Translations under genes and position numbers: made by a program
Notes under the pieces: model-generated
The model's input: only the letters and a program-made list of their open reading frames with translations
Databases searched by the model: none
Told to the model about the DNA's origin: nothing
NCBI GenBank assembly: GCA_030603385.1
Contig: JAUVXW010000006.1
Span: forward strand, 64,001-128,000
Reading direction: 5' to 3'
Origin: Promethearchaeota archaeon
GTDB taxonomy: Archaea; Asgardarchaeota; Lokiarchaeia; Sigyniarchaeales; SOKP01
Length of the DNA: 64,000 bases
In this document: piece by piece, positions 27,213 through 31,846 of the stretch
Position numbering within the stretch: position 1 is the stretch's first letter
Layout: each line of letters starts with the position of its first letter

Positions 27213-28340
27213 ATGGTTATAGTGTCAAAAACTAAATATTATAAAGATCTCATTGAACGTTTTAATAATTGGATCTTTCGTTTACCCGATTCCAAACAAC
27301 TTATGCCTCTTCTTAAAATAGCGTTTACACCCGAAGAAGCTCAGTTCCTTGCGAAGATTCCTTTTATAGGACATACTGCAGAGCAACTTTCCGAGAAGAT
27401 AGCTATGCCTGTAAAAGAACTTACAGAAAAATTAGAGAGTTTTGCTAGAAAAGGTATTGTCTTTCGCTATGATGATGGATCTACTATTCGTTATTCACTT
27501 TGTGATTCAAATTTTATATTTTATAGATCTATTGGCTGGAAAGGGGAAGATAATAAATTTAATCGAAAGATCTCACCCTACCTAAATCAATATTATATTG
27601 ATGCTTTTGCTATAGAGTTTTTAGACCACCCCACTCAGGGACTCCGAGCAATTCCAATAAATGAAACTATTAAAGATACACGTCAAGTTGTACCATATGA
27701 GGATATCATAAAAGTTGTTGATAATTTCAAATACTATTCTGTATCAAAATGTCCATGCAGTCATAGACATAATCTTGATTCTGATTTTGAAGTATGTGAA
27801 CATGAATTAGAACGGTGCTTACATTTTGATACCCTTGGTAAATATTGCGTAGAAAATGGATTAGGCAGAGAAATTACAAAAGAAGAAACTCTAGAAATAC
27901 TGAAACGAGCTGCTGATGCTGGGTTGGTCCATGGGATTTCAAATACACAGGGTCGAATGGATACTATTTGTAACTGTTGTTCCTGTTGCTGTTTGTACTT
28001 AGAATCAGTAGTAAAGATGCCTGGAATAGTTCCCCGGGGACACCAGCCTTCAAATTATATACGAGAAGCTGATGATGAAAAGTGTACAGGATGTGGTGTT
28101 TGTGTTAGATCGTGTCCGATGAAAGCACTTGAACTTGAAGATAAGAAAGTTATTTTCAATCCAGATAGATGCATAGGCTGTGGTGTATGTGCACATAAAT
28201 GTAAACAAAATGCCAGTTATATGGTACATCGCGATGGAGAACAAGATTTTCCGAAAGATCCTAGAGAACAGGCAATAAGATTTCTCACTGAAAGAGAACT
28301 TGATCCCAACGAAGTTTTTAGAAAGAATTTTTTGGGGTAA
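27213..28340 (+). CDS. 4Fe-4S dicluster domain protein
   Basis: CPC, GLVH, ICNCCSCCC and two C-terminal ferredoxin motifs. Confidence 0.85.
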   Translation: MVIVSKTKYYKDLIERFNNWIFRLPDSKQLMPLLKIAFTPEEAQFLAKIPFIGHTAEQLSEKIAMPVKELTEKLESFARKGIVFRYDDGSTIRYSLCDSNFIFYRSIGWKGEDNKFNRKISPYLNQYYIDAFAIEFLDHPTQGLRAIPINETIKDTRQVVPYEDIIKVVDNFKYYSVSKCPCSHRHNLDSDFEVCEHELERCLHFDTLGKYCVENGLGREITKEETLEILKRAADAGLVHGISNTQGRMDTICNCCSCCCLYLESVVKMPGIVPRGHQPSNYIREADDEKCTGCGVCVRSCPMKALELEDKKVIFNPDRCIGCGVCAHKCKQNASYMVHRDGEQDFPKDPREQAIRFLTERELDPNEVFRKNFLG

Positions 28341-28486: not shown

Positions 28487-30142
28487 ATGGCAGAATTTGA
28501 TAAAATTAAAGAAGATATGGAAGATTGGCAGAATTCTTATCCAACCAAAAAAGAGCGAAGAAAAAGTTTTAAAAATCTTTCTGATATAGAAATTAAACGT
28601 CTCTATACTCCAAATGATGTTAAAGAGCTTAATTATGAACTAGACTTAGGATTTCCCGGACAATATCCTTTTACTCGAGGAGCGTATCCTAATATGTATA
28701 GAGGCCGATTATGGACTATGAGACAATTTGCCGGTTTTGGAACTGCTGAACAGACTAACAACCGCTATAAATTCTTAATCGAACATGGTCAAACTGGATT
28801 AAGCGTTGCTTTTAGTTTGCACACAATTTATGGTATTGAAGCAACCGATCAAAAGGCTTTGGGAGAAATTGGAAAGGAAGGAGTGGCGATTGATACACTG
28901 AAAGATATGGAAACACTTTTTGATGGTATTGATCTATCGAAGATTAGTACATCCATGACTATTAATGCACCAGCGTCTATTTTATTAGCAATGTACATAG
29001 TGACTGCCGAAAAACAAGGCCATTCTCCTGAGCAATTGAGAGGGACTATTCAAAATGATATTTTAAAGGAATATATCGCGCAGAAGTCATGGATATATCC
29101 CCCAGAACCATCGATGCGTTTAATTGTGGACACGATAGAATACTGTACTAACCATGTTCCACAATGGTATACAATCAGTATAAGTGGATATCATATTCGA
29201 GAGGCGGGTTCAACTGCAGTTCAAGAGTTAGCCTTCACTTTGGCTGATGGTTTTGCTTATGTTGAAGCTGCAATCGAAAGAGGTTTGGATGTTGATGATT
29301 TTGCCCCTCGGTTGTCTTTTTTCTTTAATTCTCATAACAACTTCTTCGAAGAAGTATGTAAATATAGGGCTGCTAGAAGGATTTGGGCTAAACATATGAA
29401 AAATAAATACGGAGCAAAAAAGCCAGAATCCTTGAGACTACGATTCCATACTCAAACAGCGGGGGTTTCTTTAACTGCCCAAGAACCTGAAAATAATATG
29501 GTGAGAGTAACACTTCAGGGTTTAGCTGCTGTTTTAGGAGGGACTCAATCATTACACACGAATTCTTTTGATGAAGCTTTATGTCTTCCTACTGAAAATG
29601 CTGTAAAAATAGCATTAAGGACACAGCAAATCATCGCACACGAATCAGGAGTAACTGATACAGTTGATCCCTTAGCTGGATCTTATTATGTGGAATGGCT
29701 TACAAATAAGATGGAAGAAGAAGCTGAGAATTACTTTCAGCAGATTGATGAATTGGGAGGGGTTATTCCTGCAATAAAAGCCAACTTCTTTCAAAAGGAA
29801 ATAGCAAATGCCTCCTATAAATACCAACAAGAAATTGAGAACAGAGAAAGAACAATAGTCGCTGTAAACCAATATCAACAAAAAGAACCATGTACGATCC
29901 CTTTATTGAAAATTGATGAGGAAGTTGCGAAAGAACAGGTGAATACATTAAATAAAATAAAACAGGAACGAGATAACGATAAGATTCAAGAAAATCTATT
30001 AAAATTGAAAGAAGCCGCTAAAGGAACAGAAAACTTAATGCCTTATATTATGGATGCTATCAGAGTTTATGCCTCTATTGGAGAAATTATTAATACATTA
30101 AAAGAAGTATTTGGAGTATATTTTGAAGACTCGATTTTTTAA
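28487..30142 (+). CDS. B12-dependent acyl-CoA mutase large (substrate-binding) subunit, isobutyryl-CoA mutase-like signature
   Basis: PGQYPFTRG, WTMRQFAGFG, GTIQNDILKEYIAQ, SISGYHIREAG, FHTQTAG and LHTNSFDEAL. Confidence 0.92.
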   Translation: MAEFDKIKEDMEDWQNSYPTKKERRKSFKNLSDIEIKRLYTPNDVKELNYELDLGFPGQYPFTRGAYPNMYRGRLWTMRQFAGFGTAEQTNNRYKFLIEHGQTGLSVAFSLHTIYGIEATDQKALGEIGKEGVAIDTLKDMETLFDGIDLSKISTSMTINAPASILLAMYIVTAEKQGHSPEQLRGTIQNDILKEYIAQKSWIYPPEPSMRLIVDTIEYCTNHVPQWYTISISGYHIREAGSTAVQELAFTLADGFAYVEAAIERGLDVDDFAPRLSFFFNSHNNFFEEVCKYRAARRIWAKHMKNKYGAKKPESLRLRFHTQTAGVSLTAQEPENNMVRVTLQGLAAVLGGTQSLHTNSFDEALCLPTENAVKIALRTQQIIAHESGVTDTVDPLAGSYYVEWLTNKMEEEAENYFQQIDELGGVIPAIKANFFQKEIANASYKYQQEIENRERTIVAVNQYQQKEPCTIPLLKIDEEVAKEQVNTLNKIKQERDNDKIQENLLKLKEAAKGTENLMPYIMDAIRVYASIGEIINTLKEVFGVYFEDSIF

Positions 30143-30156
30143 ATTGGTGAAATTAA

Positions 30157-30586
30157 ATGTCTAAAGATAAAATAATAAAGGTTCTTGTATGTAAGCCTGG
30201 GCTTGACGGGGGTTTTTAGAGCCTCCGGGCTTAACGGGCATGATAGAGGAGCCAAAGTTTTGGCTAGAGCTTTAAGAGATGCGGGAATGGAAGTTATTTA
30301 TACAGGTATCCATCAAACGCCTGATGACATCGTTAATACTGTCATCCAAGAAGATCCTGATGCAGTAATGTTAAGTATATTATCAGGATCTCATAATGCT
30401 CTTTGTCCTATTATTATGCAAAAACTTAAGGAACAAGGTATCGATGATGTCCTTGTAGCTGTTGGAGGTATTATCCCTGATGAAGATAAACCTTTCTTAG
30501 AGGAACAGGGTTTGAAGGGATTTTACGGACCAGGAACTAATTTGAGTACGATTGTTGAATTTGTGAAAAACAACTTAAAAAGATAA
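30157..30586 (+). CDS. Cobalamin-binding small subunit of the acyl-CoA mutase, interrupted by a 28-nt predicted BHB intron
   Basis: GGTGA-6nt-ATG 30157 gives MSKDKIIKVLVCKPGLDG then TAG at 30217. The rest (HDRGAKVLARALRDAGMEVIYTG...) is in the +1 frame. Removing 30206-30233 gives a 133-aa protein with KPGLDGHDRG. Confidence 0.9.
30206..30233 (+). other. Predicted 28-nt canonical BHB mRNA intron
   Basis: Exon helix GCCUG/CGGGC (5 bp), central helix GGCU/GGCU (4 bp), bulges UG^A and UA^A, and intron stem CGGGGGUUU/GAGCCUCCG (9 bp, UUA loop). Confidence 0.85.
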
Positions 30587-31591: not shown

Positions 31592-31846
31592 TTAGGATTT
31601 CTTTTTTGGGTCAATCCATTCAGAATAAATTTCTATAAGTGTCAAAGATTTACTCCTCTGGCATTTCTCGCATTCTTCATCTGTGAGTTTTTTGAATACA
31701 AAATCTCCAGCTTTGAATTGTCTTAAGAAATCCGCTTGACATGCACTGCATTTTATAACACTATGCTTTTTCTCAACAAATCTTTTCTTTCGGTCTAATA
31801 TATCTCCCACCGCAGGAATTGGGGGAAACTGTGGCTCGTCGCTCAT
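31592..31846 (-). CDS. Small zinc-finger protein
   Basis: CSAC...FKAGDFVFK...CEKC; 84 aa. Confidence 0.7.
   Translation of the reverse strand: MSDEPQFPPIPAVGDILDRKKRFVEKKHSVIKCSACQADFLRQFKAGDFVFKKLTDEECEKCQRSKSLTLIEIYSEWIDPKKKS

Follow-up and report, generated by a model that had tools for sequence, protein, structure and literature searches.

A candidate bulge-helix-bulge intron in the coding sequence of a B12-binding mutase subunit of Asgard archaea

How can an archaeon make a working B12-binding subunit of an acyl-CoA mutase from a gene in which a stop codon separates the first codons from the rest of the domain? The question is raised by a locus in a 64,000-nucleotide stretch of DNA from a Promethearchaeota archaeon (hereafter the window), which lies on contig C26 of genome G000 (3.9 Mb, 94% complete). 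A preliminary description of the window had proposed that 28 nt within this gene (30206-30233) are a canonical bulge-helix-bulge (BHB) intron in a coding sequence (CDS), and that their removal is needed for a functional B12-binding subunit. Comparative evidence, namely the ten alleles found, covariation, purifying selection, constraint on the exon flanks, and the presence of genes for the splicing enzymes, supports this proposal. We place the probability that the segment is a genuine archaeal BHB intron in the CDS of the mutase small subunit, spliced for function, at roughly 0.87.

Reading frame and fold of the interrupted gene

The frame is interrupted as the preliminary description had read it. 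From ATG 30157, which follows a GGTGA motif by 6 nt, the gene reads MSKDKIIKVLVCKPGLDGGF (...KPGLDGGF) and ends at TAG 30217-30219, and the rest of the B12-binding domain (GHDRGAKV...) lies in a different frame with its stop at 30584-30586. An unspliced message translated from this ATG would give only a 20-aa peptide. Deletion of 30206-30233 restores, as had been proposed, both the frame and the GLDGHDRG motif: the result is a 402-nt open reading frame (ORF) of 133 aa that reads KPGLDGHDRG across the junction CTT G|AC GGG CAT (the predicted exon-exon junction is CTTG|ACGGGCAT). All 133 residues of the conceptual spliced protein match P0128, a protein that close relatives encode on at least 24 contigs, and the N-terminus encoded by exon 1 is identical in the intronless proteins P0126, P0128, and P0129. 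The DxHxxG loop is complete only after removal of the 28 nt. With this loop, a PF02310 domain, and an operon shared with a large subunit and MeaB all present, the gene fits the small subunit of an MCM-family acyl-CoA mutase.

The sequence across the junction folds into a strict helix-bulge-helix-bulge-helix (hBHBh') structure. In RNAfold, this structure is both the minimum free energy (MFE) and the centroid fold of 30195-30239 (dG of -21.5 kcal/mol, z of -2.5; 2 of 200 shuffles fold equally well), reproducing exactly the complete BHB of the preliminary description, and it is retained when a 66-nt context is folded. Across alleles, both flanking helices of the strict form are present, measuring 5 bp in the exon and 8-9 bp in the intron.

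Such structures are rare in the genome. We scanned both strands of the 3.9-Mb genome for compact BHBs with a minimum of 5 bp in the exon helix and 9 bp in the intron stem, and only about eight loci meet these thresholds. The mutase intron is the sole GC-rich locus among them and scores highest of those that, once removed, leave two open frames joined. Relaxed thresholds combined with an ORF-repair filter yield hundreds of false positives in this AT-rich genome, and the scan serves for ranking only, with the mutase locus first. By blastn-short, the intron sequence occurs only once in the genome, which excludes a dispersed mobile element.

Alleles, constraint, and competing explanations

The insert recurs among relatives. 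At one and the same codon position it interrupts ten alleles, among which there are 9 different intron sequences, either 26 or 28 nt long. Of 54 genomes that represent species of the genus, 6 have the insert, and it is also present in independent metagenome assemblies. The intron is absent from 48 of the 54 species genomes, about 120 orthologues are uninterrupted 133-aa proteins, and none of 11 loci in other genera of the order has an intron. Among the matches listed by a pattern scan of metagenomes (at least 120), only L079, L110, and L144 are true mutase alleles and the rest are chance matches. Matches to the intron pattern on the bacterial genome contigs L035 and L037 were likewise rejected as chance matches.

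This distribution speaks to whether the insert is an artefact of assembly or sequencing, a possibility that the preliminary description had itself raised. DNA contigs of run X1 (Logan) leave 30197-30223 uncovered, as would be compatible with an error at this site. But independent assemblies of other samples contain this 28-nt insert as well (L031, L164/L165, and P0134), and variant inserts are found in five other species genomes and in further metagenome contigs. An artefact is therefore, for all practical purposes, excluded.

The structure is conserved across alleles. In all ten (that of the window and nine further ones), the same hBHBh' architecture is the MFE and the centroid fold. In alignment A1, 99.3% of cells are paired overall and 98.6% of those in the hairpin are paired. 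Alignment of orthologues, which had been suggested as a check on presence or absence and on compensatory changes, revealed compensatory double changes at five of the eight aligned intron-stem pairs. None of 500 shuffles reaches the observed covariation score, and slid-register controls drop to 14-61% paired. The exonic bulge base is invariant and the intronic bulge bases are variable: the first two bases of the 3' bulge vary (UA or AU) while its third (A, the first base of exon 2) does not, and the variation in the last base of the 5' bulge fits an intronic position.

The alleles also constrain where the RNA would be cut. Only if both bulges are cut after their second base do all alleles encode Asp, the conserved N-terminal strand, and the conserved protein as a whole; other registers are excluded by alleles with a G-initial intron and by those with an AUA bulge. 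The claim that splicing restores the Asp of DxHxxG holds insofar as this residue is produced in every intron allele. However, the Asp is not strictly invariant in the genus, as some intronless orthologues have Asn in its place (L005 of G012 and L015 of G024; P0065, P0103, and P0104). The decisive effect of splicing is therefore restoration of the frame, and recovery of the Asp is not its sole effect.

Patterns of substitution indicate whether the insert has destroyed the gene. A small palindromic insertion or duplication with target-site-like repeats could have produced a young pseudogene. Consistent with such an event, an imperfect 12-nt direct repeat flanks the insert at offset 28, the ends of the intron resemble the ends of the exons, and close strains lack the insert. 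Yet intron-bearing alleles separated by a synonymous divergence (dS) of ∼1.7 keep the start codon, intact exons, and a paired hairpin with compensatory changes. At this divergence, the median ratio of nonsynonymous to synonymous divergence (dN/dS) of exon 2 is 0.033 in intron-bearing alleles versus 0.032 in intronless orthologues, and exon 2 of intron-bearing alleles has no stops or frameshifts. The large subunit and MeaB are also intact, the genome has no other copy of the element, and no intact copy that could serve for gene conversion was found, the only paralogue being 46% identical. Purifying selection on the exons excludes a pseudogene, and we consider inactivation hardly credible.

The exon part of the BHB carries a constraint of its own. 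Across its six codons, synonymous sites are fixed in nine of nine intron alleles and vary freely in 15 intronless alleles of the same genus. In the manner of a cbf5-type pre-mRNA intron, the BHB element interrupts a reading frame subject to purifying selection, and its 26 or 28 nt break the frame.

Several observations weigh against splicing of this gene. Transcripts were sought in contigs from three (X15, X16, and X17) of the six RNA runs found, together with those from the DNA run X1. Among the RNA contigs of X15, X16, and X17, there is no transcript of an intron-bearing allele across the site. The sole site-crossing RNA contig (X15, 1900 nt, 33 mismatches, gaps summing to 28) derives from a relative without the intron, and the allele of this relative is found as DNA too. 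Codons of the same relative also appear at loose ends in X16 and X1, and RNA contigs that are 100% identical to the window (X17) cover only 29900-30057. Contigs of these four runs bear on splicing neither way. Moreover, because the exact junction is present in the DNA of intronless alleles that are 98% identical, a read that appears spliced counts only when compared with matched DNA. The window allele has variants of its own, such as T at 30198 and those by which it differs from L171 and L174. Lastly, a +1 slip at UUU-UAG or a start at TTG 30185 in the window allele could in principle give an unspliced product with GLNGHDRG, and Asn at the Asp position, as in this product, exists in some orthologues.

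Translation without splicing would take one of three routes: a +1 frameshift at UUU-UAG (30214-30219), a CUU-to-CUU hop, or initiation at TTG 30185. The product would have an altered N-terminal part and an NxHxxG loop, of which natural examples are known from the Asn variants. In the window allele, the +1 frame after UUU|U does run into exon 2, and a 133-aa ORF from TTG 30185 exists and is reported by gene callers. However, a 26-nt insert displaces the frame one way and a 28-nt insert the other, and one kind of frameshift or hop could therefore not serve all alleles: those with 26 nt need the opposite shift and have no slippery site. An RF2-like programmed +1 frameshift was considered and rejected, as no conserved slippery codon stands beside the stop and UUU-UAG is limited to the 28-nt alleles. 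Furthermore, the unspliced frame gives Tyr in place of Asp or Asn in two alleles, G020 has no start codon in the frame of exon 2, and the product would lack or misplace the first beta-strand (KIKVLVCKP), which about 120 orthologues conserve. The invariant bulges, the central helix, and the compensatory changes in the stem would also be left unexplained. Translation of the unspliced message is therefore very unlikely. The two readings differ in the peptides they predict, with the unspliced one expected to contain GGFRASGLNGHDR (...GLDGGFRASGLNGHDR) and the spliced one PGLDGHDR.

The 28 nt are a presence/absence polymorphism down to strains that are 98% identical. Over 1.2 kb, the window shares 98.1-98.3% identity with two DNA alleles, L174 and the metagenome scaffold L171, which lack exactly the 28 nt and retain the GC-rich BHB exon flanks; the predicted exon-exon junction and its flanks lie at their positions ∼434-460. 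The same exact predicted junction is carried by G053 (C37:11774-11796). L031, a more distant allele at 94% identity, bears the intron, which therefore predates the split of the window from the intronless close strains. In an intronless clade like G019 (95%), the flanks have relaxed to AT-rich codons.

Short direct repeats (ACGGG, and GGGCTT plus one base) flank the intron and make precise or near-precise deletion possible. The junction in G024 is the product expected from a deletion between the upstream halves of the flanking repeats (GGGCTT), which leaves Asn rather than Asp. Both predicted deletion products, with the Asp and the Asn junction, occur in natural genomes. The gene tree of exon 2 (351 nt) is poorly resolved and implies at least two changes of intron state, with the number of losses not fixed. 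We infer an old presence of the intron in the genus, followed by repeated loss through deletion mediated by the repeats or by cDNA. Around a CCCGGG palindrome, the ends of the intron look like copies of the exon ends next to them, which suggests that the intron may have originated by local duplication.

Loss of this kind also informs the role of splicing. The preliminary description had viewed the intron as an on/off switch comparable to that of XBP1. For a switch of this kind, the intron would be real and its removal conditional (e.g., on EndA/RtcB activity or stress), as in XBP1/HAC1. Unspliced mRNA cannot yield an active subunit, the intron sits in the middle gene of a packed three-gene operon, and down-regulation was speculated for cbf5 by Yokobori et al. 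(PMC2738675). On the other hand, near-identical strains and 48 of 54 species manage without the intron, and its repeated loss speaks against regulation of any importance. EndA and RtcB serve housekeeping functions, and the motif, a plain BHB, lacks additional elements for the binding of ligands or proteins. Nothing that we found indicates regulated splicing, and the structure is a BHB rather than twin stem-loops. We regard a regulatory switch as unlikely.

Splicing enzymes, other introns, and the mutase operon

Genome G000 encodes enzymes that could remove and join such an intron. There are two EndA-domain genes of ∼200 aa each (PF01974, 99 and 71 bits) and one RtcB gene (PF01139, 558 bits). 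One EndA paralogue keeps the Tyr/His/Lys pattern and the other is without the His, as expected for catalytic and structural subunits. The putative alpha subunit (198 aa) is encoded on C44, the putative beta subunit (200 aa) on C9, and RtcB on C39. The two paralogues fit the (alpha-beta)2 type, which is reported for Asgard archaea together with a broad-specificity L1 loop (PMC5829648).

With these enzymes, the pre-mRNA is predicted to fold locally into the hBHBh' form and the tRNA-splicing endonuclease, composed of the two EndA paralogues, would cut after the second nucleotide of each 3-nt bulge. RtcB would then join the exons and probably circularise the 28-nt intron, with 30233 linked to 30206. 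The ligated mRNA would read CTT G|AC GGG CAT and encode the normal 133-aa subunit of 14.6 kDa with its DxHxxG cobalamin-ligand loop. We infer that cleavage and ligation occur in vivo at the predicted bonds.

The same arrangement is seen in two tRNA-Ser genes of G000, in which a 4-bp helix, a 3-nt bulge, and a cut after base 2 result in a correct 7-nt anticodon loop. This cut rule was derived by hand; the intron coordinates given by ARAGORN are not BHB-aware and matched no locus of the BHB scan. ARAGORN recognises only 22 tRNA genes in the 94%-complete genome, 9 of them with introns, and many others are probably too interrupted for recognition. Few recognised and often interrupted tRNAs fit the heavily interrupted and very intron-rich tRNA genes described in Asgard archaea (bioRxiv 10.64898/2026.10.13.758758). 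One gene on C17, labelled 'tRNA-Thr(tgt)' by ARAGORN, is tRNA-Ser(UGA) after splicing by the BHB rule.

Two other interruptions in G000 were observed. On the minus strand of C51 (49724-49752), a strict hBHBh' with a 5-bp exon helix, a 9-bp stem, and a length of 29 nt is flanked by GGTTCGAG and TCCGTGCC. Its flanks resemble a tRNA T-arm, and the element is probably a tRNA intron at a non-canonical position. The sole uL11 gene (C41, ∼68095-68140, minus strand; L163:1640-1705) is broken after ...VTGG and resumes at ASGGPPI. Its insert holds an in-frame TAA, and the MFE fold is hairpin-like and not a strict BHB.

The mutase operon consists of three tightly packed genes in the order large subunit, B12-binding small subunit, and MeaB, with the intron in the middle one (table 1).

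Table 1. Genes of the mutase operon and elements of the predicted intron, in window coordinates
Feature	Position	Strand	Basis and remarks
Acyl-CoA mutase large (catalytic) subunit, intact, 551 aa	28487..30142	+	ORF; Pfam PF01642 MM_CoA_mutase, E 6.5e-228
Shine-Dalgarno-like GGTGA	30146..30150	+	Read from sequence; 6-nt spacer, then ATG 30157
Exon 1: ATG, 16 codons plus first base (G) of Asp codon	30157..30205	+	Reading frame
Exon helix h, 5 bp	30195..30199 / 30235..30239	+	RNAfold; one U-G/C-G change, otherwise invariant across 9 alleles
Central helix H, 4 bp, GGCU both strands	30200..30203 / 30228..30231	+	RNAfold; invariant in all alleles
5' bulge UGA, predicted cut 30205/30206	30204..30206	+	RNAfold; third base A or G among alleles
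Predicted BHB intron, 28 nt, contains in-frame TAG 30217-30219	30206..30233	+	Fold and deletion; absent from L171, L174
Intron hairpin h', 9-bp stem 30207-15/30219-27, 3-nt loop	30207..30227	+	RNAfold
3' bulge UAA, predicted cut 30233/30234	30232..30234	+	RNAfold
Exon 2: AC of Asp codon, then GHDRG..., 116 codons plus stop	30234..30586	+	PF02310 B12-binding, E 3.8e-21
MeaB-type G-protein chaperone, intact, 330 aa	30594..31586	+	Pfam PF03308, E 4.2e-86

The large subunit reads MRQFAGFG and KEYIAQK, and thus has Phe and Gln at two positions where methylmalonyl-CoA mutases presumably carry Tyr and Arg. These residues suggest an isobutyryl-CoA-mutase-like specificity, and the label 'methylmalonyl-CoA mutase' may be a misnomer for this subunit. 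Directly upstream of the operon, 27213-28340 encodes a Cys-rich protein of 375 aa that carries a pair of 4Fe-4S ferredoxin motifs (Pfam Fer4). Just downstream of meaB, on the minus strand, is an 84-aa ORF (31592-31846) that has two CxxC pairs and is zinc-ribbon-like.

Significance and comparison with known systems

In the literature searched, a need for BHB splicing in an archaeal CDS has since 2002 been documented for cbf5 of Crenarchaeota alone. In a 2020 systematic study, cbf5 was still the single archaeal CDS case, next to one intron in a 5' untranslated region (UTR; PMC7714728), and its standing as the single case of BHB splicing inside a CDS is restated elsewhere (PMC5829648). No report of BHB introns in Asgard coding sequences was found in the literature searched, with most subscription journals outside its coverage. 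Within that literature, the mutase intron would represent a cbf5-type BHB pre-mRNA intron and a second, independently evolved CDS case. It lies in a metabolic-enzyme gene of Asgard archaea, exhibits covariation across species, and is polymorphic within a population, suggesting that mRNA splicing for protein enzymes is not merely a crenarchaeal oddity. The intron also provides a link to the intron-rich tRNA genes of Asgard archaea (bioRxiv 10.64898/2026.10.13.758758) and a small, clean substrate with which to study Asgard EndA and RtcB on mRNA.

Gene callers mis-annotate such genes, and public databases hold mis-called products of intron-bearing alleles (P0001, P0132, P0134, and P0124). One form is a bogus 133-aa ORF that starts with MYVS..., which is the unspliced reading from TTG, and the other is a 99-aa fragment from an internal Met. 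As a consequence, metabolic reconstructions may score the mutase as broken.

A broader hypothesis is offered tentatively. Archaea of the Loki type might carry a whole undescribed class of EndA/RtcB-dependent mini-introns in protein-coding genes, of which the mutase intron would be a polymorphic example. Its members would arise where a palindromic coding site is duplicated locally, and would disappear by deletion between the short repeats so formed. Although we would not yet bet on its existence, such a class, if real, would let the gain and loss of introns be followed in living members of the prokaryotic group most closely related to eukaryotes.

Among known systems, the closest is the BHB intron in the pre-mRNA of cbf5, a pseudouridine synthase gene of Crenarchaeota, which is 16-44 bp in size and splits the codon of a catalytic residue (Yokobori 2009, PMC2738675). 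The mutase intron is similarly a short BHB intron in a CDS, lacks an ORF of its own, interrupts the codon of a residue critical for function, and has been gained and lost in particular lineages; its removal, too, is predicted to require a hetero-oligomeric tRNA endonuclease. The two differ in host gene (a B12-binding mutase subunit versus an RNA-modification enzyme) and in lineage (Asgard/Promethearchaeota versus Thermoproteota), and their sequences are unrelated. Unlike that of cbf5, the mutase intron is polymorphic for presence or absence down to 98%-identical strains. Experiments have demonstrated the splicing of cbf5, whereas the mutase intron is known here from sequence comparison. The cbf5 intron is reportedly also treated by Watanabe 2002 and Yoshinari 2006.

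The intron of XBP1/HAC1 is cut by the stress sensor IRE1 at twin stem-loops in a regulated manner, with RtcB as the ligase in metazoa. Likeness to the mutase intron ends with both being short, frame-changing, spliceosome-independent mRNA introns with RtcB-type ligation, predicted in the case of the mutase. The structure in the mutase gene is a BHB, of the tRNA endonuclease type, and not the twin stem-loops of IRE1, for which no search was made.

With the BHB introns of archaeal tRNAs and rRNAs, which depend on EndA and RtcB, the mutase intron shares the 4-bp helix, the two opposite-strand 3-nt bulges, the flanking helices, and the (predicted) cut after the second bulge base, but differs in that its host RNA is an mRNA. 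An intron in an mRNA is also known from HVO_1309 of Haloferax volcanii, in which a BHB intron in the 5' UTR was experimentally shown to be a substrate of the splicing endonuclease and to be circular once excised (PMC7714728). The mutase intron resembles it as a BHB intron in an mRNA and as a substrate type of the archaeal splicing endonuclease. However, the intron of HVO_1309 is located in a UTR and leaves the reading frame uninterrupted, whereas that of the mutase gene breaks the frame.
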